A stretch of 21,361 bases of DNA from a virus. Lineage: Duplodnaviria; Heunggongvirae; Uroviricota; Caudoviricetes. The stretch lies in IMG/VR virus record IMGVR_UViG_2690316028_000007; one strand, 5' to 3'. The notes beneath the pieces were generated by a model. That model searched no databases. It saw nothing but the letters and a program-made list of their open reading frames with translations, and was not told the DNA's origin. Shown here one piece after another: positions 306 through 16,732 of this stretch (positions are counted from its first letter, which is position 1; every line of letters starts with the position of its first letter). Position numbers and translations under genes: made by a program.

Positions 306-710
306 CTGTATGCGATATCATCTGAAAGTGATGAGTTCCTGTATGCAGGATATTTACAATCGTAAAAACTACGCTATGATGCCCATAGTGTCAGTTTGTA
401 TAAAAATCCTGTTCACGCTAAAGAAAACATTGAGATGCAATTTAATGTTGGTAAACATACCAGCCCAAAAGATTTTATTCAATCTGTTTTTATATGAAGA
501 TATTTCAAGTGAATATTAAGAGCATATAATATTATTATTGCACGCAGCTATTATAATATAACAGATTAGTTTAATGATTTGTTTTTTGTGAGTTAAACAC
601 ATGGTTTTATAGTTGTGATGCAATGAGATTTTCCTTATTGTTGAACTGGCGAATATTGATTTTCCACCTATACTTACCTGGTGTAACCCCAATGATATCA
701 GGTGGATAAT

Positions 711-1424
711 ATGCCATACATATGTTCTATCATTTTGGTGTTGAACTCGTTTGGTGTCCGAATTGGTAAAGAAGATATTTTGTTTAAAAAAGGAAATGCT
801 GTCCTCATTGAATACAATTTAAAAGATCTTTTTTCGTCAATTACAGATCATCTAATGATCGTAGATGTTGAGGAGAAAACAGTTAATGATTTCTTTAAAA
901 ACTACACACTCTCACCTTTTTCTGTAAGAAGGTTTTATCCGTCATACTTGATAGTAGAATGTGAAGATTTTTCATTGTTAAAGAACTTGGTTGCATGCTT
1001 GAATTGTGATAGCAAAACCGTGGATGTAGTTAGAAATCAAATATCACTTGCATGTCTTGCTGTCTTATCTTCAGAGAAAATAGTGCAAAGTTTTTTGTTC
1101 GGAAGTCTTAATAGCTTAGGTTGTAAAGTTAAGGCTATTATTCACTCGGATATCTCAGCGTCATGGAGACTTTGTGATATATCTTCAAGATTATATATGA
1201 GCGAGAGTTTGTTAAAAAGAAAATTAAAAGACGAAGGATTATCGTTTAGTAAATTAATTCTTGAAGAACGAATGATGATGGCGCAAAGATTATTGATCTA
1301 CAGTAACCATACTGTCGGCAAGGTGGCGGGAATATGCGGGTATGACAATGCATCATATTTTGTAAGTGTTTTTAGAGGATATTTTGGTGTGCCTCCGCAC
1401 CAATATTTATCAAGATTTTCTTAG
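711..1424 (+). CDS. AraC/XylS-family transcriptional regulator, AppY/EnvY-like prophage moron
   Basis: C-terminal AraC-type HTH (GYDNASYFVSVFRGYFGVPPHQYL; SESLLKRKLKDEGLSF resembles AppY as I recall it). ATG at 711 is 6 nt after AGGTGG. Very AT-rich gene and flanks, own terminator downstream. Confidence 0.85.
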   Translation: MPYICSIILVLNSFGVRIGKEDILFKKGNAVLIEYNLKDLFSSITDHLMIVDVEEKTVNDFFKNYTLSPFSVRRFYPSYLIVECEDFSLLKNLVACLNCDSKTVDVVRNQISLACLAVLSSEKIVQSFLFGSLNSLGCKVKAIIHSDISASWRLCDISSRLYMSESLLKRKLKDEGLSFSKLILEERMMMAQRLLIYSNHTVGKVAGICGYDNASYFVSVFRGYFGVPPHQYLSRFS

Positions 1425-5248: not shown

Positions 5249-5454
5249 TATTTAAACATTACCGAATAGGTATAAATCTCGATTGTCGATGGTATTGGTT
5301 GTGTGACAATACCTAATCTTTCCGGTATGCGTGAAGAGAATACAAACGACAGATTATGTAAGGGAAACGCGCTGAATCTTTCACTCTTTCATGCTGAGTG
5401 ATTTGACGTTATATTTTTAGCCGTAAGTGAAGAGCAAACGCATGGAGCGACAAA

Positions 5455-5661
5455 ATGCATAAAGATCAATACACTGATGCCCCCTCCCAGGAGCAGGTTC
5501 GTGTAAAAACTATGCTTAATAGCACCATTTCGATGGGTTACCCGGATGTTGTAATTGCATGTATAGAACATCAAGTGTCTCTGGAAGCATTCAGGGCAAT
5601 TGAGGCCGCGTTAGTAAAGCACGATAAGAATACGAAGGATTATTCCCTGGTGGTTGACTGA
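5455..5661 (+). CDS. Hypothetical 68-aa protein (position corresponds to ydfO/ynfO of Qin; possibly truncated)
   Basis: ATG at 5455 with GGAG 8 nt upstream. Stops in all three frames shortly after 5661, so it is not a simple frameshift of a longer gene. Confidence 0.5.
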
Positions 5662-5999
5662 TCACCATAACTGCTAACCATTCTGACCATTTCACAAGTG
5701 ACAGAGTCAATATCGTATTCTGTCACTGTCAGGCTAATACAGCAATGCAATTCAACTACAGCAATGCCTCGTATTTAGGTGAATTTACAATATCGTCCAG
5801 TTCGGATGCCGGCTGCATTTCTGAAGATAAGGCATTTCGGTTCTCGTATTTTCCCCTCATGCTCGTCAGTCCTGCGCGTAGTAAGAAACAGGACACTCAC
5901 ACTAATTTGTGTGGGCATGCAGTGATGTCCTTCTGAATTATCCCCATGCCATTATGTAAAGCTCTGTTACAGATGCTCGTCACGGTTGTCAGGCTGTCG

Positions 6000-6120
6000 G
6001 GTCCTCCCAGTGAGGGGCCCTGCCACGGGGCGGGAGCGTCGCGGAAAAAGGCTAGTTTTTGAAATTTTATTCGTCATCACCACTACTGTAATTGATTGGT
6101 ATTACAGTGGTTTTATTTTT
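6000..6120. other. Lambda-like cos site (cosN plus start of cosB) upstream of the Nu1-like gene
   Basis: ACG GGGCGGGAGCGT CGCGGAAAAAGG...GAAATTTTATTCGTCATCAC aligns with the remembered lambda end ACG GGGCGGCGACCT CGCGGGTTTTCG...GAAAATTTTCCG...TTCGTCATAAC. Lies about 190 bp upstream of the small terminase start, as in lambda. Confidence 0.55.
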
Positions 6121-6213
6121 ATGGTGTCGATTCTGATTGTTTTTTGTTCATCGCTAACACCGTTTGCCTAAAGTTGTTCGCAAGATGCATGTTTAAAACA
6201 TTCTGGAGCGGGT

Positions 6214-6708
6214 ATGGATCGAGAGTTAAAAAATCTGACGCTGAATATCAGTCAACTGGCGGCATTGTCAGGTGTACATCGCCAGACTGCTGCGGCAAGG
6301 CTGCAAAATCTACCCGTTGCAGGGGGGCATGAAAGCAACCTCAAGCTTTATCGGGTGGTTGATATTGTGTCGGCATTTCTGGCATTACCACCGCCGGTTG
6401 CAGAAGGCGAAATGGACGCGCATGAGCGCAAAGCCTGGTATCAGTCTGAACGTGAGCGTCTTAAGTTCGAACAGGAAACGGCACAACTCATTCCGGCCAG
6501 TGATGTCAGACGGGAGTTTGCCATCTGGGCAAAAGCGGTCGTGCAGGTGCTGGAGACATTACCGGATATTCTTGAACGTGACTGCGGTCTGCAGCCTGCC
6601 GCTGTGAGCCGTGTTCAGTCCATTATTGATGATCTGCGCGATCAGATAGCCCTGCGGGTGACTGAAGCAGGTGCGGATGATGAGGAGGAATTACAGCAGG
6701 AGGAGTAA
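6214..6708 (+). CDS. nohQ: Terminase small subunit (Nu1-like DNA-packaging protein)
   Basis: N-terminal HTH-like LTLNISQLAALSGVHRQTAAARLQ. GGAG 7 nt upstream. Stop overlaps the next start (TAATG). Position immediately after cos. Confidence 0.85.
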   Translation: MDRELKNLTLNISQLAALSGVHRQTAAARLQNLPVAGGHESNLKLYRVVDIVSAFLALPPPVAEGEMDAHERKAWYQSERERLKFEQETAQLIPASDVRREFAIWAKAVVQVLETLPDILERDCGLQPAAVSRVQSIIDDLRDQIALRVTEAGADDEEELQQEE

Positions 6709-7412
6709 TGCTGAATCAGGAAACCGCAAAGGCAGCACGAACCGATTCAGGTTATATCCTTCGCGCACCGAGACGAATGCGGGTTGCTGATGCCGTTGCT
6801 CAGTATATGCGGGTGCCCATGGGGGCAGGGAACTCAGTCCCGTGGGATCCGCTGGTGGCACCGTATGTTATTGAGCCTATGAACTGCCTGGCCTCGCGTG
6901 AATACGACGCAGTGATATTTGTTGGCCCGGCACGAACCGGCAAGACTATCGGCCTGATTGACGGCTGGGTGATTTACAACGTGATTTGCGATCCTGCGGA
7001 TATGCTGATCATTCAGATGACAGAGGAAAAAGCCCGCGAACACTCCAAAAAACGACTCGCCAGAACGTTTCGCGTCAGCCCGGAAGTGGTCAGTCGCCTG
7101 AGTCCGAACAAAAATGACAACAACGTTTATGACAGAACATTCCTTGCTGGCAACTACCTGAAAATCGGCTGGCCGTCAGTCAATATCATGTCCTCATCAG
7201 ATTATAAATGCGTCGCGCTGACGGATTATGACCGTTTTCCGGAAGATATTGATGGCGAGGGGGATGCCTTCTCTCTTGCCTCAAAACGTACCACCACATT
7301 TATGTCCAGCGGTATGACGCTGGTGGAGAGTTCCCCCGCTGGCCATGCAGATCCCGGCGTTTCGTCAGAAACTGAGCGACGGCTGGTACCAGGTACGCAT
7401 TGCCGGGCGTGA
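6708..7412 (+). pseudogene. Terminase large subunit, N-terminal ATPase fragment (Walker A GPARTGKT), truncated at a deletion junction near 7320-7345
   Basis: Translationally coupled to nohQ. P-loop motif VIFVGPARTGKT. The ORF runs into out-of-frame tail-gene sequence and ends after 234 codons, whereas intact large terminases are about 600-640 aa. Confidence 0.7.
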
Positions 7413-7857
7413 TGCAGGTGAAACCGAATTGTCTGCCCGTCTTAATGAGCCGCTGGCAAATGGTGCCGTGATCCACATCGTGCCGCGTCTGGCGGGAGCT
7501 AAAAGTGGCGGTGTGTTTCAGGTGGTGCTGGGGGCGGCGCTGATTGCGGTGGCATGGTGGAACCCTGTGGGCTGGCTGGGTGCCGCGGCTGTATCGGGCA
7601 TGTATGCGGCAGGGGCCAGTATGATCCTGGGCGGAGTGGCGCAGATGCTGGCACCGAAAGCCAGGACGCCCACGGCAGCAAGTACAGATAACGGCAAACA
7701 GAACACCTATTTCTCCTCACTGGATAACATGGTTGCCCAGGGCAATGTTCTGCCTGTTCTGTACGGGGAAATGCGCGTGGGGTCACGCGTGGTTTCTCAG
7801 GAGATCAGCACGGCAGACGAAGGGGACGGTGGTCAGGTTGTGGTGATTGGTCGCTGA
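7345..7857 (+). pseudogene. C-terminal fragment of lambda tail assembly protein I
   Basis: The tail ...LAPKARTP...DNGKQNTYFSSLDNMVAQGNVLPVLYGEMRVGSRVVSQEISTADEGDGGQVVVIGR matches the remembered lambda gpI C-terminus. Frame opens only at 7318, in a different frame from the terminase fragment. Confidence 0.75.
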
Positions 7858-7875
7858 TGCAAAATGTTTTATGTG

Positions 7876-7903
7876 AAACCGCCTGCGGGCGGTTTTGTCG
7901 TTT
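7876..7903 (+). terminator. Terminator-like hairpin between the I fragment and the tail-fibre gene
   Basis: AAACCGCC-TGCG-GGCGGTTTT followed by GTCGTTT. Confidence 0.45.
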
Positions 7904-7917
7904 ATGGAGCGTGAGGA

Positions 7918-10893
7918 ATGGGTAAAGGCAGCAGTAAGGGGCATACCCCGCGCGAAGCGAAGGACAACCTGAAATCCACGCAGCTGCTGAGTGTGATTGA
8001 TGCCATCAGCGAAGGGCCGGTTGAAGGTCCGGTGGATGGATTAAAAAGCGTGCTGCTGAACAGTACGCCGGTGCTGGACAGTGAGGGGAATACCAATATA
8101 TCCGGCGTCACGGTGGTGTTCCGGGCAGGTGAGCAGGAGCAGACTCCGCCGGAGGGGTTTGAATCCTCCGGCTCCGAGACGGTGCTGGGTACGGAAGTGA
8201 AATATGACACGCCGATCACCCGCACCATTACGTCGGCAAACATCGACCGTCTGCGCTTTACCTTCGGTGTACAGGCACTGGTGGAAACCACCTCAAAGGG
8301 TGACAGGAATCCGTCGGAAGTCCGCCTGCTGGTTCAGATACAGCGTAATGGTGGCTGGGTGACGGAAAAAGACATCACCATTAAGGGCAAAACCACCTCG
8401 CAGTATCTGGCCTCGGTGGTGGTGGATAACCTGCCACCGCGCCCGTTTAATATCCGGATGCGCAGAATGACGCCGGACAGCACCACAGACCAGCTGCAGA
8501 ACAAAACGCTCTGGTCGTCATACACCGAAATCATCGATGTGAAACAGAGCTACCCGAACACGGCACTGGTCGGCGTGCAGGTGGATTCGGAGCAGTTCGG
8601 CAGCCAGCAGGTGAGCCGTAATTATCATCTTCGCGGGCGTATTCTGCAGGTGCCGTCGAATTATAACCCGCAGACGCGGCAATACAGCGGTATCTGGGAC
8701 GGAACGTTTAAACCGGCATACAGCAACAACATGGCCTGGTGTCTGTGGGATATGCTGACCCATCCACGCTACGGCATGGGGAAACGTCTTGGTGCGGCGG
8801 ATGTGGACAAATGGGCGCTGTATGTCATCGGCCAGTACTGCGATCAGTCAGTACCGGACGGCTTTGGCGGCACGGAGCCGCGCATCACCTGTAATGCATA
8901 CCTGACCACACAGCGCAAGGCGTGGGATGTGCTCAGTGATTTCTGCTCGGCGATGCGCTGTATGCCGGTATGGAACGGGCAGACGCTGACGTTCGTGCAG
9001 GACCGACCGTCGGATAAGGTGTGGACCTATAACCGCAGTAATGTGGTGATGCCGGATGATGGCGCGCCGTTCCGCTACAGTTTCAGCGCCCTGAAAGACC
9101 GCCATAATGCCGTTGAGGTGAACTGGATTGACCCGGATAACGGCTGGGAGACGGCGACAGAGCTTGTTGAAGATACGCAGGCCATTGCCCGTTACGGTCG
9201 TAACGTCACGAAGATGGATGCCTTTGGCTGTACCAGCCGGGGGCAGGCGCACCGCGCCGGGCTGTGGCTGATTAAAACGGAACTGCTGGAAACGCAGACC
9301 GTGGACTTCAGCGTGGGTGCGGAAGGGCTTCGCCATGTACCGGGGGATGTCATTGAAATCTGCGATGATGACTATGCGGGTATCAGCACCGGCGGGCGCG
9401 TGCTGGCGGTGAACAGCCAGACCCGGACGCTGACGCTCGACCGTGAAATCACGCTGCCATCCTCCGGTACCACGCTGATAAGCCTGGTTGACGGTCAGGG
9501 TAATCCGGTCAGCGTGGAGGTCCAGTCCGTCACCGACGGCGTGAAGGTGAAAGTGAGCCGTGTTCCTGACGGCGTTGCAGAATACAGCGTGTGGGGGCTG
9601 AAGCTGCCGACGCTGCGCCAGCGCCTGTTCCGCTGCGTGAGTATCCGTGAGAACGATGACGGCACGTATGCCATCACCGCCGTGCAGCATGTACCTTCTG
9701 CCCGTAAGGTGAATGGTAAGGCGCTTTCAGCGGATATAACACTGACGCCGAAAGATATTGGTACGCTTAACTCAACAACAATGTCATTCAGCGGTGGTGC
9801 TGGTTGGTTCAAATTAGCAACGGTAACCATGCCACAGGCGAGTTCTGTTGTTTCAATTACGTTGATTGGTGGCGCGGGATTTAACGTGGGGTCACCTCAA
9901 CAGGCAGGTATATCTGAACTTGTTTTGCGTGCAGGTAATGGTAATCCGAAGGGGATTACTGGTGCTTTATGGCAGCGCACATCGACAGGGTTTACAAATT
10001 TTGCCTGGGTCAATACATCTGGTGATACTTACGATATTTACGTTGCAATCGGAAATTATGCGACTGGTGTAAATATTCAATGGGATTATACCAGTAATGC
10101 CAGCGTGACGATTCATACGTCACCAGCATATTCTGCTAATAAGCCGGAAGGGTTAACGGACGGTACAGTTTATTCACTCTATACGCCATCAGAGCAGTTT
10201 TATCCGCCTGGCGCACCAATCCCGTGGCCATCAGATACCGTTCCGTCTGGCTATGCCCTGATGCAGGGGCAGACTTTTGACAAATCTGCATACCCGAAAC
10301 TTGCAGCCGCTTATCCGTCAGCCGTGATCCCTGATATGCGTGGCTGGACGATTAAGGGCAAACCCGCCAGTGGTCGTGCCGTATTGTCTCAGGAACAGGA
10401 CGGCATTAAATCGCACACCCACAGCGCCAGCGCATCCAGTACGGATTTGGGGACGAAAAACACATCGTCGTTTGATTACGGAACCAAATCCACGAATAAC
10501 ACCGGGGCGCATACCCATAGTATTAGCGGGACTGCAAATAGTGCCGGTGCGCACCAACACAAGAGTTCCGGTGCATTTGGTGGCACGAACACGAGCATTT
10601 TCCCTAATGGTTATACCGCGATTTTAAATCTAAGCGCGGGGATTATGAGCACAACAAGCGGTAGTGGCCAGACTCGTAATGCAGGGAAGACATCATCAGA
10701 TGGTGCTCATACCCACTCGCTGTCCGGCACTGCTGCAAGCGCAGGCGCACATGCACATACTGTCGGTATTGGTGCTCATACGCACTCCGTTGCGATTGGT
10801 TCACATGGACACACCATCACCGTTAACGCTGCTGGTAACGCGGAAAACACCGTCAAAAACATCGCATTTAACTATATTGTGAGGCTTGCATAA
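7918..10893 (+). CDS. stfQ: Chimeric tail fibre: lambda J (host-specificity protein) N-terminal about 597 aa fused in frame to a side-tail-fibre C-terminus with tail-collar-like region and HxH repeats
   Basis: N-terminus [34 protein letters not shown]... matches lambda J as remembered, up to ...AITAVQHVP (about nt 9700). Thereafter the protein diverges and GC content drops. C-terminus has GAHTHS/GAHAHT/GSHGHT repeats and ends [25 protein letters not shown] upstream of the ATG. Confidence 0.85.
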
Positions 10894-11468
10894 TGGCATT
10901 CAGAATGAGTGAACAACCACAGACCATAAAAATTTATAATCTGCTGGCCGGAACTAATGAATTTATTGGTGAAGGTGACGCATATATTCCGCCTCATACA
11001 GGTCTGCCAGCAAACAGTACCGATATTGCACCGCCAGATATTCCGGCAGGCTTCGTGGCTGTTTTCAACAGTGATGAGGCATCGTGGCATCTCGTTGAAG
11101 ATCATCGGGGAAAAACCGTCTATGACGTGGCTTCCGGCGACGCGTTATTTATTTCTGAACTCGGTCCGTTACCGGAAAATGTTACCTGGTTATCGCCGGA
11201 AGGGGAGTTTCAGAAGTGGAACGGCACAGCCTGGGTGAAGGATACGGAAGCAGAAAAACTGTTCCGGATCCGGGAGGCGGAAGAAACAAAAAACAACCTG
11301 ATGCAGGTAGCCAGTGAGCATATTGCGCCGCTTCAGGATGCTGCAGATCTGGAAATTGCAACGGAGGAAGAAATCTCGTTGCTGGAAGCATGGAAAAAGT
11401 ATCGGGTATTGCTGAACCGTGTTGATACGTCAACTGCACAGGATATTGAATGGCCAGCACTGCCGTAG
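10893..11468 (+). CDS. tfaQ: Tail fibre assembly chaperone (lambda Tfa-like)
   Basis: [54 protein letters not shown]... is nearly identical to lambda Tfa as remembered. Start overlaps the stf stop (TAATG). Confidence 0.9.
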
Positions 11469-11565
11469 GGTAAAACATATAAATTCTATAATTAGATGTA
11501 TCTTTCCATTTACGGCAAGGAAGGGGGCTTGGAACACGTAAAGCATCTCACACCGAGATTATTTT

Positions 11566-12156
11566 TTATATGTCAGGTGTCTGAAGTTTTGCTTTGGCTC
11601 TTAAAATGGTTTGCCGCGAGGTTTTGAATTCCCGGGCAATGGCACTTATACTTACACCTGACTTAATTCGTTCGAATACCACCTGTTTCTGTTCTTCATT
11701 TAACACAGGTGGTCGACCAAAACGTTTCCCTGCGCCGCGGGCTCTTACTATCCCGGAATGAGTGCGTTCAAGTAAAAGGTCTCGTTCAAATTCAGCGACT
11801 GCTGAAATTACTTGCATCATCATTTTTCCTGTTGGACTGGTCAGGTCAATGCCACCCAATGCTAAGCAATGCACTCTGATACCTGTTTCGGTCAGTTGTT
11901 CCACTGTTTTCCTGATATCCATTGCATTACAACCAAGGCGATCCAGTTTTGTCACAATCAATTGATCACCACATTTCAGGCGAGCAAGCAACCGGTTAAA
12001 ACCAGGACGCTCACTGGTTGCTGCTGAGCCGCTAATGTGTTCTTCGATTATTTGCTGAGGTTTGATTTTAAAACCTGCACTTTCGATTTCCCGGCGTTGA
12101 TTTTCGGTGGTCTGATCCAGCGTTGATATCCGACAGTAAGCAAAAATTCGAGACAT
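11566..12156 (-). CDS. pinQ: Serine recombinase of the resolvase/invertase family (Pin-like DNA invertase)
   Basis: N-terminal catalytic motif [11 protein letters not shown]-terminal HTH. 196 aa. Position next to tfa as in Qin/Rac. Confidence 0.9.
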
Positions 12157-12473
12157 AGTGAGACTCTATTCGAAATTGGTGTTCATATCATAATGCATCT
12201 CAGAAAATAATTATGATTATTTTTGTGCATATTTGTATGTACACGTTCGAAAATAAACGAATGCGTATGCAACCCCGTAATTTTTGGTGAGACCCAAAAT
12301 CGATTTTGTGAAAAATGGCTTTAACTCGGTTTGTTTTTCGAGTTCCGGGCGGACTCAAGGAAGAAGAATAGTGTTGCGTGTTATTTTAACCAGATTTCAA
12401 GTTGTTTGGACGTGGAAAAGTGGAGCAAAATGTTGTTAAAGTGGAAAAATGATAAAAAAGTAAGTTTATTATA

Positions 12474-12707
12474 TTACATTTTACCATTTAAATTTTGGTT
12501 GTCTTTAAGAACTGATATCGCTGTTTGTAATAATTCTTTGTTATCCAGCCATGATTTTTTCTTTATGTTTCCTTCAATGTAATCAAGCAATGTTCTGGTA
12601 TTAATAGGTCTTCCCTGTTTTGCTACTTCCACTACAGCATCCCCTAGGATAATTCTTACTTCAGGAAGCTGCGCAGGGAACCACTTTAGGGTGTCTTTTG
12701 ATTTCAT
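12474..12707 (-). CDS. ydfK: YdfK/YnaE-family small prophage protein (77 aa), reported as cold-shock induced
   Basis: MKSKDTLKWFPAQLPEVRIILGDAVVEVAKQGRPINTRTLLDYIEGNIKKKSW... ATG at 12707 preceded by AAGGA. The longer 88-aa start has no SD. Long AT-rich upstream region. Confidence 0.85.
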   Translation of the reverse strand: MKSKDTLKWFPAQLPEVRIILGDAVVEVAKQGRPINTRTLLDYIEGNIKKKSWLDNKELLQTAISVLKDNQNLNGKM

Positions 12708-13207
12708 GAAGATATTCCTTAAAATATTATTGATTTTCATTGCGATATTGTATGTCTGATTCAGGATATGTTGACTTATACATCGGTTTTGTCTGGGTTA
12801 TTGGATATGCCAATCCCTAATTTTATTAGGGCATGACTAAAAATGCTGAATATGATAAGGAGAGAAGTGATTATCAGTATGCTGTTCATATAGCCTCGAA
12901 TTAGTAATGTGTTATATATGATATAGTTGACAATTTTTATCTTGGGTGTTTTTAAAGTTCGTAGATAAACATTGTCGTTTCAGGTATACAGGAATGCTAG
13001 CAGGTGGCAGCAAAAATCAGGCGGTTTATGGCGCAAGCTGAAGCGGCAACTGCAAACTATCTTATGCAGAGACTCTACACGGATTGGGTTTAAAAGTATA
13101 CATAGATAACAGTTTTTATCTGAAAAAGAAAAATATCAAGGTGATATAGCCTATATGCCTTTGATGCGGAGGAATGACTGTGATGGGAGTGATGTATCTG
13201 AATAGTT

Positions 13208-13247
13208 GAAAAACCGCAGACACGCCTTATGCAAGAACGTGCTGCGG
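13208..13247 (-). terminator. Candidate minus-strand Rho-independent terminator about 250 bp inside the prophage end (possible tI/sib analogue)
   Basis: CCGCAG(A)CACG ... CGTG-CTGCGG imperfect 10-bp stem with 13-nt loop, followed on the minus strand by TTTTTCAAC. Confidence 0.4.
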
Positions 13248-13492
13248 TTGGCTGGTAAATTTTTCGATAGTGTGAGTATTGAATGATTTCCAGCCGTTCT
13301 TGATTTTACGCATAAATCCATGAAAAAACTACTTATCTGTTGGGGAGTTTTTTTGGGGCATATATGGGACAGAAATAGGCCCCAGATAGACACTGAGATC
13401 GAACTTAGGATGCTTTTTAAAAAATGCAACTATCTGAAAAAACCTAGAAAACGCCAAGGAAACCACAGGATGGGAAAAAACACCTGTGAATT

Positions 13493-14776
13493 ATGGATTT
13501 CCAGTTATATTCGCTCGGCGCAGCGTTAGTGTTTCATGAAATATTTTTTCCTGAATCATCAACGGCAATGGCGTTAATTCTGGCAATGGGAACCTATGGT
13601 GCAGGTTATGTGGCGCGTATTGTCGGAGCATTTATTTTCGGCAAAATGGGCGACAGAATAGGGCGTAAAAAAGTGCTCTTTATTACCATCACCATGATGG
13701 GGATCTGTACCACCTTAATTGGAGTGTTACCGACCTATGCACAGATTGGTGTTTTTGCCCCCATCTTGCTGGTGACGCTGCGTATTATTCAGGGATTGGG
13801 TGCAGGTGCGGAAATTTCCGGTGCCGGTACGATGCTGGCGGAATATGCGCCAAAAGGTAAGCGCGGAATTATCTCCTCATTTGTGGCTATGGGAACTAAC
13901 TGCGGAACCTTAAGCGCAACGGCAATCTGGGCCTTTATGTTCTTCATTCTCAGTAAAGAGGAACTGCTGGCGTGGGGATGGCGTATACCGTTCCTGGCGA
14001 GCGTTGTCGTGATGGTCTTTGCTATCTGGTTACGTATGAATCTGAAAGAAAGCCCGGTCTTTGAGAAGGTTAACGACAGCAACCAACCGACAGCAAAACC
14101 TGCACCTGCTGGTAGCATGTTCCAGAGCAAATCCTTCTGGCTGGCAACAGGGCTGCGTTTTGGTCAGGCGGGTAACTCCGGTTTAATTCAGACTTTCCTT
14201 GCAGGCTATTTAGTACAGACGTTATTGTTTAACAAAGCAATTCCAACAGATGCATTGATGATCAGTTCGATTCTCGGCTTTATGACCATTCCGTTCCTTG
14301 GTTGGTTATCCGATAAAATTGGTCGCCGGATCCCGTATATTATTATGAATACCTCTGCGATTGTGCTGGCGTGGCCAATGCTTTCTATCATCGTAGATAA
14401 AAGCTATGCCCCGAGCACCATTATGGTTGCACTGATTGTGATTCATAACTGTGCGGTGCTGGGATTATTTGCTCTGGAAAACATTACCATGGCAGAAATG
14501 TTCGGCTGTAAAAACCGCTTTACCCGGATGGCTATTTCAAAAGAAATTGGTGGTCTTATCGCTTCCGGTTTTGGTCCTATCCTGGCGGGTATTTTCTGCA
14601 CCATGACGGAATCCTGGTATCCGATCGCCATTATGATCATGGCATATTCAGTAATTGGTTTAATCTCTGCGCTGAAAATGCCAGAGGTGAAAGACCGTGA
14701 TTTAAGTGCGCTGGAAGACGCTGCGGAAGATCAACCGCGTGTTGTAAGAGCTGCGCAACCTTCCAGAAGTCTGTAA
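13493..14776 (+). CDS. ydfJ: MFS transporter of the metabolite:H+ symporter family (ProP/ShiA-like); reading frame opens only at 13490, consistent with loss of about 40 N-terminal residues at the prophage junction
   Basis: 427-aa ORF with MFS signatures (GKMGDRIGRKKVL, 12-TM-like hydrophobic profile). An in-frame TGA sits immediately upstream at 13487-13489. Starts at a motif (DFQLY) that in relatives lies about 45 aa into the protein. Confidence 0.8.
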   Translation: MDFQLYSLGAALVFHEIFFPESSTAMALILAMGTYGAGYVARIVGAFIFGKMGDRIGRKKVLFITITMMGICTTLIGVLPTYAQIGVFAPILLVTLRIIQGLGAGAEISGAGTMLAEYAPKGKRGIISSFVAMGTNCGTLSATAIWAFMFFILSKEELLAWGWRIPFLASVVVMVFAIWLRMNLKESPVFEKVNDSNQPTAKPAPAGSMFQSKSFWLATGLRFGQAGNSGLIQTFLAGYLVQTLLFNKAIPTDALMISSILGFMTIPFLGWLSDKIGRRIPYIIMNTSAIVLAWPMLSIIVDKSYAPSTIMVALIVIHNCAVLGLFALENITMAEMFGCKNRFTRMAISKEIGGLIASGFGPILAGIFCTMTESWYPIAIMIMAYSVIGLISALKMPEVKDRDLSALEDAAEDQPRVVRAAQPSRSL

Positions 14777-14787
14777 ATCCTCAATCC

Positions 14788-14813
14788 CTTCTCTTACCGG
14801 AGAGGGGATTTTT
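14788..14813 (+). terminator. Probable Rho-independent terminator after ydfJ
   Basis: CCTTCTCT-TACCGG-AGAGGGG stem (with G-U pairs) followed by ATTTTTATT. Confidence 0.5.
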
Positions 14814-14864
14814 ATTCATATAACAAAACATATAGCTTGCCATATTTATATTTAAGGAATTGTT

Positions 14865-16325
14865 ATGGGAAATAATTTGTTATCAGCAAAAGCGACACTC
14901 CCTGTTTATGATCGTAATAACCTGGCCCCAAGAATTATTCATTTAGGCTTTGGTGCATTTCACCGTGCGCATCAGGGCGTGTATGCCGATATTCTTGCTA
15001 CAGAACATTTCAGTGACTGGGGATATTATGAGGTCAACTTAATCGGCGGCGAACAGCAAATTGCCGATTTACAACAGCAAGATAATCTTTATACCGTTGC
15101 GGAAATGTCGGCCGATGCGTGGACGGCTCGCGTCGTTGGCGTCGTTAAAAAAGCCTTGCACGTACAGATGGATGGCTTAGAAACCGTGTTGGCTGCGATG
15201 TGTGAACCGCAAATCGCGATTGTCTCTCTGACAATCACCGAAAAAGGGTATTTCCACTCTCCGGCGACCGGACAGTTAATGCTCGATCACCCGATGGTCG
15301 CTGCCGACGTGCAAAATCCCCACCAGCCGAAAACAGCAACAGGAGTGATTGTTGAGGCGCTGGCTCGCCGTAAAGCGGCAGGACTTCCCGCATTTACCGT
15401 CATGTCATGTGACAACATGCCAGAAAACGGTCATGTTATGCGTGACGTTGTCACTTCCTACGCGCAAGCCGTTGATGAAAAACTGGCACAATGGATCGAA
15501 GATAACGTGACTTTCCCATCAACAATGGTGGACCGTATTGTGCCCGCAGTGACAGAGGATACGCTGGCGAAAATCGAACAACTTACCGGTGTGCGCGATC
15601 CTGCGGGCGTTGCCTGTGAACCTTTCCGCCAGTGGGTAATAGAAGATAACTTTGTTGCCGGACGTCCGGAATGGGAAAAAGCGGGAGCCGAACTGGTTAG
15701 CGATGTGCTGCCTTATGAAGAGATGAAGTTGCGCATGCTCAACGGCAGTCATTCATTCCTGGCGTATCTGGGGTATCTTGCTGGATATCAGCACATTAAT
15801 GACTGCATGGAAGATGAACATTATCGTTATGCGGCGTATGGCTTGATGTTGCAGGAACAAGCGCCGACGCTGAAAGTGCAGGGCGTTGATTTGCAAGATT
15901 ACGCTAACCGATTAATTGAACGCTATAGCAACCCGGCGTTACGCCATCGAACCTGGCAGATTGCGATGGATGGCAGCCAGAAATTGCCACAGCGGATGTT
16001 GGATTCTGTTCGCTGGCATCTGGCGCATGACAGCAAGTTCGAGCTGCTGGCACTGGGCGTCGCGGGTTGGATGCGTTATGTCGGTGGTGTTGATGAACAG
16101 GGAAATCCGATTGAAATCAGTGACCCACTGTTACCTGTTATTCAGAAGGCTGTACAAAGTAGTGCCGAAGGGAAAGCGCGCGTCCAGTCATTGCTGGCGA
16201 TTAAGGCGATTTTTGGTGATGATTTGCCAGATAATAGCTTGTTTACTGCAAAAGTGACGGAAGCGTACTTGTCTTTATTAGCGCATGGTGCGAAAGCGAC
16301 CGTGGCGAAATATTCCGTGAATTAA
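14865..16325 (+). CDS. ydfI: Mannitol-dehydrogenase-family oxidoreductase (D-mannonate/fructuronate oxidoreductase-like)
   Basis: 486 aa. N-terminal Rossmann motif [15 protein letters not shown] typical of the long-chain mannitol dehydrogenase family. AAGGA SD. Synteny with ydfJ and ydfZ. Confidence 0.9.
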
Positions 16326-16352
16326 AAAAGCAATGCCGCCATCGGCGGCATT
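16326..16352 (-). terminator. Rho-independent terminator for ydfZ (A-tract on the plus side, T-tract on the minus side)
   Basis: AATGCCGCC-ATC-GGCGGCATT 9-bp stem; on the minus strand followed by GCTTTTTTAAT. Confidence 0.55.
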
Positions 16353-16359
16353 CACACGC

Positions 16360-16563
16360 TTAGTTCATGCCGAGACGAATCAGGTCCAGAGGTGCCAGTT
16401 TCTCTTCACAACCTTCAACAACTACGGTTTTTCCGCGGCGGATTTGCTCAGCGGTCAGACCTTCAGTATCAATCGACAGGATCTTGCCAGTGTGACCGGT
16501 GCCGCTAACCATAACACGGCTGCCAGTGGTGATTGCGTTACGGTTACGATCGTAGGTCGTCAT
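16360..16563 (-). CDS. ydfZ: YdfZ-family small protein (putative selenium-binding protein), 67 aa
   Basis: [54 protein letters not shown]... AAGGAG SD upstream. Synteny. Confidence 0.85.
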
Positions 16564-16644
16564 AGGTGTTTTCTCCTTTCTGATTTACAGTCGAAGCCCA
16601 CGTAACGGGCGCAATATAAATACTCCTGTCGAGTGAAATATTTT

Positions 16645-16658
16645 TTGTTTTTGATCAA
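16645..16658 (-). promoter_or_regulatory. Candidate FNR/CRP-type site (TTGAT-N4-AACAA on the minus strand) upstream of ydfZ
   Basis: Plus strand reads TTGTT-tttg-ATCAA, about 85-100 bp upstream of the ydfZ start. Consensus TTGAT-N4-ATCAA matched 9/10. TATTTATATT -10-like sequence downstream on the minus strand. Confidence 0.35.
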
Positions 16659-16699
16659 GCTCACATCTTTTTTGATGCATGCATGAGCCGTAAGGCGGG

Positions 16700-16732
16700 G
16701 GGAAAAGCCTCTCATCCCGGATGGGATGAGAG
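16700..16732 (-). terminator. Rho-independent terminator for ydfH
   Basis: CCTCTCATCCC-GGAT-GGGATGAGAG 10-bp stem; on the minus strand followed by CTTTTCCCCCC. Confidence 0.6.

Follow-up and report, generated by a model that had tools for sequence, protein, structure and literature searches.

The window, by which we mean the whole analysed stretch of 21,361 nucleotides from a virus record (IMGVR_UViG_2690316028_000007), carries near position 6000 a G+C-rich segment followed by AT-rich DNA, in a prophage devoid of head genes. A sequence-only reading of this stretch suggested a retained lambda-like cos site with an altered cohesive end. Is this segment indeed a cos, to which packaging lineage does it belong, and could any phage still use it? 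We conclude that positions 5999–6213 very probably constitute an essentially intact cos of the mEp460/cdtI/Tritos group of lambdoid phages, left in a gutted prophage.

The region directly precedes the genes of the two terminase subunits and is oriented as they are (Table 1). The G+C content is 81% over 5998–6044 and 35% over 6045–6213, the AT-rich cosB being about 175 bp long. From the start of the 12-mer to the small-terminase (TerS) start codon, ATG at 6214, there are 186 nt, the corresponding distances in lambda and phage 21 being 190 and 188 nt. The motif pointed out in the sequence-only reading, ACG-GGGCGGGAGCGT-CGCGG followed by AT-rich DNA, is present, as part of CACG-GGGCGGGAGCGT-CGCGG at 6024–6044; the span assigned there to the site, 6000–6120, includes cosQ, cosN and about half of cosB, but not the full region.

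Table 1. Features of the cos region and of the adjacent terminase genes (window coordinates)
Feature	Position	Strand	Remarks
Complete cos region (cosQ, cosN and cosB)	5999–6213	+	
cosQ-like heptamer GGGTCCT	5999–6005	+	equals the annotated cosQ of phage 21
cosN, CACG-GGGCGGGAGCGT-CGCGG	6024–6044	+	matches the record ends of cdtI and Tritos
Predicted nicks	after 6027 (top), after 6039 (bottom)		from lambda homology and deposited record ends
Putative 12-nt 5' cohesive end GGGCGGGAGCGT	6028–6039		
A5/T5 tract AAAAAGGCTAGTTTTT	6045–6060	+	adjoins cosN on the right; end of the core common to the three cosB classes
cosB-like region	6061–6213	+	specific to the small-terminase class of the window
Candidate binding block TCGTCATCACCAC	6071–6083		cross-phage conservation
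Candidate binding block GTGTCGATTCTGATTG	6122–6137		cross-phage conservation
Candidate binding block TTTTGTTCATCGC	6143–6155		cross-phage conservation
IHF-like site TACCAATCAATTA	6089–6101	-	one mismatch to the consensus WATCAANNNNTTR; +62 to +74 from the nick
Inverted repeat ACTACTGTAAT / ATTACAGTGGT, then T-run; terminator-like hairpin	6082–6111	+	overlaps the IHF-like site
Small terminase subunit, intact, 164 aa, DUF1441 (PF07278) / phrog_141	6214–6708	+	
Truncated large terminase	6708–7412	+	residues 1–210 of about 700, then out-of-context sequence
Deletion junction	7337/7338		joins mEp460 ~1149 to ~14363, 13.2 kb lost (blastn vs mEp460)

Homology to the ends of phage genomes

The similarity to the lambda cos, taken by itself, is marginally above chance. 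When 250 nt surrounding the site are aligned locally with the lambda cos junction, the score is 24, compared with 17.8 ± 2.4 for shuffled sequences (z about 2.6), and 54 of the 2000 shuffles reach this score. When the 60-nt lambda cos core is compared without gaps with both strands of the window, the best position is 5993 with 32 matches out of 60, the runner-up having 29. The cosN 21-mer occurs in the window only once even if up to three mismatches are allowed, and none of 100 shuffles contains a match. It has rotational symmetry in 6 of 11 base pairs, compared with 5 of 11 in lambda.

The decisive evidence for a cos, at the level of sequence comparison, is the homology to the ends of phage genomes, identified by BLAST against the phage collection. 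The record of phage cdtI (AB285204) starts at GGGCGGGAGCGT, which corresponds to window position 6028. The linear record of Tritos (OV696610) starts with the same 12-mer and ends with ...CTGCCACG, corresponding to position 6027. The joined ends of cdtI and Tritos, ...CCTGCCACG-GGGCGGGAGCGT-CGCGGAAAAAGGCTAGTTTTT..., are identical to window 6019–6060 at 42 of 42 nucleotides, and the same core is seen in the cos of mEp460_ev081 and PhiR40_1.

If the sites are anchored at the nick, the 12-mers form a series: GGGCGGCGACCT in lambda, 21 and phi80, GGGCGGCGTCCG in N15, and GGGCGGGAGCGT in the group of the window, with an intermediate variant GGGCGGCGCGCT, found in mEp043 and in Klebsiella phage Kp4865-4, bridging the latter to lambda. 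The heptamer GGGTCCT is situated 29–30 nt to the left of the nick in lambda, 21, phi80, N15, the window group and the intermediates, that is, in all lambda-type and mEp460-type cos of the alignment; the distance from its start to the predicted top-strand nick is 29 nt in the window and 30 nt in lambda and phage 21. Since the identity to phage ends, the nick-anchored alignment, and the cosQ and TerS spacing all agree, the site is a true cos homologue, with cosQ, cosN and cosB in a lambda-like geometry, as the sequence-only reading had supposed. Of the comparison with lambda, 21, phi80 and N15 proposed there, the nick-anchored line-up shows the cosQ in each of these phages; the score against lambda alone is marginal.

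These data bear on two alternative explanations. One is a chance resemblance, with a G+C-rich stretch that happens to precede an unrelated gene, and the lambda alignment (z about 2.6, with 54 of 2000 shuffles as high) would be compatible with it. However, the 42 nt identical to the junctions of phage genome ends, the location ahead of terminase genes, retained in more than 100 loci, and the correct distance to cosQ refute this explanation, whose probability we regard as negligible.

The other is a lambda-type cos in decay, the four differences in the 12-mer being mutations that have altered or abolished recognition in a dead prophage. Indeed, the 12-mer departs from that of lambda at positions 7, 8, 9 and 11, and the prophage is plainly degraded. 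However, the same 12-mer with the same flanks is shared by phages that form plaques or can be induced and by at least 119 contigs of IMG/VR, the accompanying terminase genes are of a non-lambda lineage, and the true lambda-type cos at the Qin locus, that of E. coli K-12, is identical to lambda over 105 nt with the exception of one base. A decayed lambda cos is thus refuted by a 12-mer that is wild-type in other phages and belongs to a core conserved over 114 loci, and we consider it very improbable. The sequence-only reading was correct in that there are several differences from lambda in the cohesive end, but they do not represent a changed lambda specificity: they are the wild-type state of an abundant lineage of its own, with a large terminase (TerL) only 25% identical to gpA of lambda (E=6e-19).

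The likeness to lambda is that of a related system. The order and spacing of the subsites follow the lambda cos (cosQ, cosN, and cosB formed by R3-I1-R2-R1), the cosQ heptamer is the same, CG directly precedes both predicted nicks on the 5' side, and the predicted 12-nt 5' overhang begins with GGGCGG. Unlike lambda, the window has four different bases among the twelve of the cohesive end, including G at position 11, an unrelated cosB sequence, and a small subunit of the DUF1441 family instead of Nu1. In lambda, the cosN mutation C11G impairs nicking. As the 12-mer is not GGGCGGCGACCT and the small subunit does not belong to PF07471, the window falls outside the lambda/21/phi80 cohesive-end group.

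The deposited ends deserve some caution, as those of cdtI and Tritos may have been placed by the depositors from lambda homology. Tritos forms virions and plaques, and the paper describing it gives no account of how the ends were determined (PMC9928086). For phage Ayreon, cos packaging is only predicted (PMC5764929). The assembly of mEp460_4F5 is opened 5 nt to the left of the predicted nick and its 12-mer is short of 3 nt, and the mEp460 reference record has G at position 12 of the 12-mer; these differences may reflect either end-sequencing problems or real variation. The full-text literature search with the 12-mer and its reverse complement yielded no phage paper, and in the papers found on the Qin cos, nohA and mEp460 this cos type is not described, the cos of DLP12 being the only one discussed.

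Conserved core and exchangeable cosB

The core is widespread. Of the 5426 complete E. coli genomes, 2035 contain the 68-nt segment 5995–6062, a single genome having as many as seven copies. The exact cosN 21-mer is present in at least 119 contigs of IMG/VR, and over 114 such loci the conservation is about 100% from −29 (cosQ) to +33 (the end of AAAAAGGCTAGTTTTT) and falls on both sides, being interrupted by a variable patch between cosQ and cosN. The bases of the cosQ heptamer are conserved in 80–100% of these loci, and the AAAAAGGCTAGTTTTT tract is the same in cdtI, Tritos, PhiR40_1 and mEp460_ev081. The exact E. coli-type 21-mer is also seen in metagenome-assembled genomes under the names Veillonella parvula and "Bacillota bacterium"; most likely, these are mis-binned enterobacterial prophage contigs.

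Beyond +33, the 114 loci are divided into three cosB classes: the window/mEp460 type, the cdtI/Tritos type, and the PhiR40_1 type. Each class is accompanied by its own class of small terminase: this holds for 54 of 54 loci of the window type, for 16 loci of the PhiR40_1 type, and for 39 of 43 loci of the cdtI type, the remaining four having no recognisable small-terminase gene. The small terminases of the cdtI and window types are 38% identical. Their TerL proteins are 88% identical overall, and from about residue 380, that is, in the nuclease part, nearly every position shown is identical; cosN is common to both lineages. Judging from these comparisons, the arrangement matches the logic known for lambda and phage 21, with a shared cosN and nuclease and exchangeable cassettes of cosB and the small subunit. 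It may serve as a natural example of this principle, in which one cosQ–cosN core and nuclease domain are combined with three interchangeable cassettes.

Hence the relatives of the window differ in what they share with it. The cosQ–cosN core and the 12-mer are the same in cdtI (AB285204), Tritos (OV696610) and the mEp460-type phages (NC_019716, LR595868, LR597641). The mEp460-type phages have in addition the same cosB class and small terminase, the nucleotide identity to ev081, 4F5 and phi458 being 97–98%; compared with them, the window copy is a remnant without the nuclease and head genes and with one substitution in the core of the IHF-like site. On the other hand, cdtI and Tritos share with the window the core only, their cosB and small terminase being of another class.

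Within cosB, the blocks TCGTCATCACCAC, GTGTCGAT.. and TTTTGTTCATC.. are retained across DUF1441-type phages with diverged cosB, and the candidate blocks are retained in 50 distinct sequences of the cosB class of the window. They are candidate binding sites of the small terminase. As the repeat search detected no family of direct repeats in the window cosB, sites resembling the lambda R sites are proposed here from cross-phage conservation only. Of the two elements that the sequence-only reading suggested to look for, IHF sites and Nu1-binding repeats, the former is represented by one site with a single mismatch, whereas direct repeats are not seen. At the end of the mEp460_ev081 record (LR597641), a segment of cosB from GGCTAGTTTTT to TTTTTTGT is tandemly duplicated over 98 nt; this could be an artefact of end assembly or a real doubling of the small-terminase binding region.

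A perfect IHF consensus is absent from the window cosB, and the IHF-like site emerged when one mismatch was allowed and the relatives were compared. In the cosB class of the window, the consensus is perfect at +62 to +74 in 54 of 56 loci, the N positions alone being variable. The cdtI-class cosB, of unrelated sequence, has a perfect IHF site at +64 in all 44 loci. In the window, the conserved T, seen in more than 90% of the relatives, is replaced by C (G at 6099 on the plus strand), yielding TACCAA instead of TATCAA; the same is observed in strain QDFD216 and in two of the 56 related loci. Both in the window and in lambda and phage 21, the interval separating cosN from the small-terminase gene contains an IHF-type site on the same strand, and the large terminase is of the gpA family. 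The annotated I1 site of phage 21, at 74–86, has the same strand and a similar distance. The lambda/21-type I1 sequence AAACATTAAGTTA, taken from the phage 21 annotation, has by count two mismatches to the same simple consensus.

The substitution of T by C might weaken the IHF-like site, and it is the only hint, seen in the sequence, of possible erosion of this cos. One may suggest that the region, while homologous to cos, is a dead fossil in which this substitution, with or without other small differences, blocks assembly of the terminase. This would agree with the restriction of TACCAA, in place of the otherwise invariant TATCAA, to the window, QDFD216 and two of 56 loci; moreover, Smith and Feiss in 1993 are said to have found that packaging of phage 21 depends on IHF. 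However, cosQ, cosN and all other conserved blocks of cosB fit the consensus, and real IHF sites tolerate mismatches, as demonstrated by the two in AAACATTAAGTTA. Lambda packages its DNA even without IHF, although with a reduced yield. On balance, we consider a dead site unlikely.

The hairpin overlapping the IHF-like site has an 11-bp stem with three G–C pairs, followed by a T-run. It was the only terminator-like site observed in the scan, compared with 1.0 expected by chance. Its arms are partly conserved in the relatives, the 3' arm not being conserved. If it served to terminate or attenuate transcription between the lysis and packaging genes, the cos could be incidental to a transcriptional role, and the scan match with its stem and T-run is what one would expect in that case. 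However, chance alone would provide one such site in the region, and the part conserved inside the hairpin is the IHF consensus. Hence a role in transcription, which would anyway be compatible with a cos, is quite improbable as the explanation of this region.

Terminase genes, the deletion and the Qin locus

The small terminase gene is intact. Its product has strong matches to Pfam PF07278 (E=2.7e-41) and to the PHROG "terminase small subunit" (E=7e-74), and it is identical at 163 of 164 residues to the protein of the sequenced phage isolate mEp460_4F5. The protein identity of 21% to the mEp460 small terminase is spurious, since a 1-nt indel in that record disturbs the reading frame; the nucleotide identity is 99.2%. 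No BLASTP similarity to lambda Nu1 was observed. The gene next to the site had been called an intact nohQ in the sequence-only reading; it is intact, but as a small subunit of the DUF1441/phrog_141 family rather than Nu1, it deserves this label by position only.

The large terminase open reading frame is identical to residues 1–211 of the TerL of PhiR40_1, a functional homologue of 700 aa, at 210 of 211 positions, and then diverges. In full-length relatives, the GpA_ATPase domain (PF05876) occupies residues 41–304 and the GpA_nuclease domain (PF20454) residues 326–644; thus the window protein retains a part of the former and lacks the latter. The reason is a deletion. Window 6189–7338 matches mEp460 1–1149 at 99.2% identity, and the next match is mEp460 14363–16721 at 95.8%. 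The 13.2-kb deletion extends from about codon 211 of the large terminase into a tail-assembly gene, so that the remainder of TerL, the portal, protease/capsid, tail shaft and tape-measure genes are lost, that is, all head genes and most tail genes; hence the prophage is headless, as the sequence-only reading had it. The junction is absent from the 5426 complete E. coli genomes and from the GTDB species representatives. In the related strain QDFD216, which shares this cos and small terminase, the large terminase is full-length and the pattern of decay is another.

On the far side of the junction, the open reading frame 7345–7857 (plus strand) contains the C-terminal part of the lambda tail-assembly protein I domain (PF06805, profile positions 38–83). 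It is followed at 7918–10893 (plus strand) by a 991-aa open reading frame that is a chimera of the N-terminus of the tail-tip protein gpJ and the C-terminus of a side tail fibre. The N-terminal part has the FNIII-A_GpJ and Phage-tail_3 domains and matches mEp460 gp18 up to about window position 9695, whereas the C-terminal part has a Collar domain and matches K-12 stfQ from about 10196. Such a structure indicates a second internal deletion or recombination.

The prophage is situated at the Qin locus, on the ydfJ side. Window 10196–15778 is 98.7% identical to K-12, covering the 3' end of stfQ, tfaQ, pinQ, ydfK, ydfJ and ydfI, and for the region of the lysis genes, cspI and gnsB, the identity to the K-12 Qin is about 91%. 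Between them, window 5297–10195 has no blastn match in the K-12 Qin (reverse strand). The Qin cos of K-12 is of the lambda type, its single difference, GGCATTTCCG instead of GGCGTTTCCG of lambda, falling in the R3 region, and the adjacent nohA encodes a Phage_Nu1 protein (PF07471, E=3e-101); the window has a mEp460-type cos and a DUF1441 small terminase. Sequence comparison thus indicates that the same locus harbours non-homologous packaging modules in K-12 and in the window, and hence the names nohA and nohQ, derived from K-12, are misleading here.

The closest complete genome, that of QDFD216, has a 1.3-kb IS3-family element at a position corresponding to about 5483–5487, some 540 nt to the left of the cos. 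The element is absent from the window, and the 5-nt overlap of the two alignment blocks is what one would expect from a target-site duplication. Further to the left, immediately upstream of the holin gene, the window encodes at 702–1424 (plus strand) a 240-aa AraC-family regulator (HTH_18 / HTH_AraC). Located in the late region of the prophage, it looks like a moron gene.

Possible use of the site in trans

Phages of the mEp460/cdtI/Tritos group package their DNA with a large terminase of the gpA family and a small terminase of the DUF1441 type. By analogy with lambda, binding of the small terminase and IHF to cosB, which adjoins cosN on the side of TerS, would bring the large terminase into place; the latter would introduce the two nicks listed in Table 1 and produce the 12-nt end GGGCGGGAGCGT. 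Packaging would then proceed rightward through the terminase genes, with cosQ serving for termination.

The resident prophage is unable to cut its own cos, since the deletion has removed the nuclease domain of the large terminase, and therefore the activity must be supplied in trans by a phage of the same class of cosB and small terminase, that is, of the mEp460 type. Such a phage, infecting or co-resident, could cut the window cos. The cut would create a recombination hotspot to the left of the cos and could initiate packaging of the DNA to the right of it: the tail-fibre genes, pin, ydfJ and ydfI. To be completed, this packaging would require another matching cos one genome length downstream; otherwise it would be abortive. 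No second cos is seen within the window in the 15 kb to the right of the site, so completed packaging of a defined unit cannot be deduced.

Cutting and packaging by a matching helper is plausible by analogy with published cases. Retention of the cos and of the small-terminase gene after the loss of the head genes is observed in the window and in the K-12 Qin, and has been reported for DLP12; O157 Sakai Sp4 shows the same, although DLP12, Qin of K-12 and Sp4 have lambda/Nu1-type modules, unlike the window. Sp4 of O157 is packaged although it has no intact terminase of its own, probably via the Sp14 terminase and an identical cos (PMC2669165). The cos of DLP12 is a recombination hotspot upon lambda infection, with half of the junctions adjoining it (PMC3945230).

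Not every helper would be suitable. The site is not expected to be used by lambda, 21 or phi80, because it belongs to a separate terminase lineage with a non-Nu1 small subunit. Phages of the cdtI/Tritos type share with the window cosN but not cosB, and lambda differs from it in cosB and in a part of cosN.

One could go further and suppose that the combination of a retained cos, an intact TerS and a TerL stub is not accidental, and that the remnant acts in trans as a decoy or as a packaging launch site. In the former version, it could titrate or poison the terminase of matching incoming phages and thus provide defence; in the latter, a helper could package chromosomal DNA rightward, resulting in cos-initiated lateral transduction of the genes on the ydfJ side. 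We find such a dedicated function highly improbable. In the preferred reading, that of an ordinary, essentially intact cos stranded in a gutted prophage, the site marks the packaging origin, and a likely entry point for recombination and packaging, of a very common E. coli prophage module. In all likelihood, it is the standard cos of another common lambdoid packaging lineage. This is a sound but ordinary finding, which contains nothing surprising for a specialist in lambda packaging and makes no open question newly testable; its practical value is mainly in annotation.

An arrangement with more than one cos is found elsewhere. The 12-kb contig IMGVR_UViG_2574179916_000005 contains the exact cosN 21-mer at 92–112 and at 8227–8247, in direct orientation and 8.1 kb apart. 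Each copy is followed by a different cosB and terminase, and a third, diverged cos-like region is situated near 10737. A helper terminase needs two cos sites in the same orientation to excise a packageable unit, although 8 kb would be too short for a head of the lambda size. In its sequence, this contig looks like a set of stacked prophage remnants.
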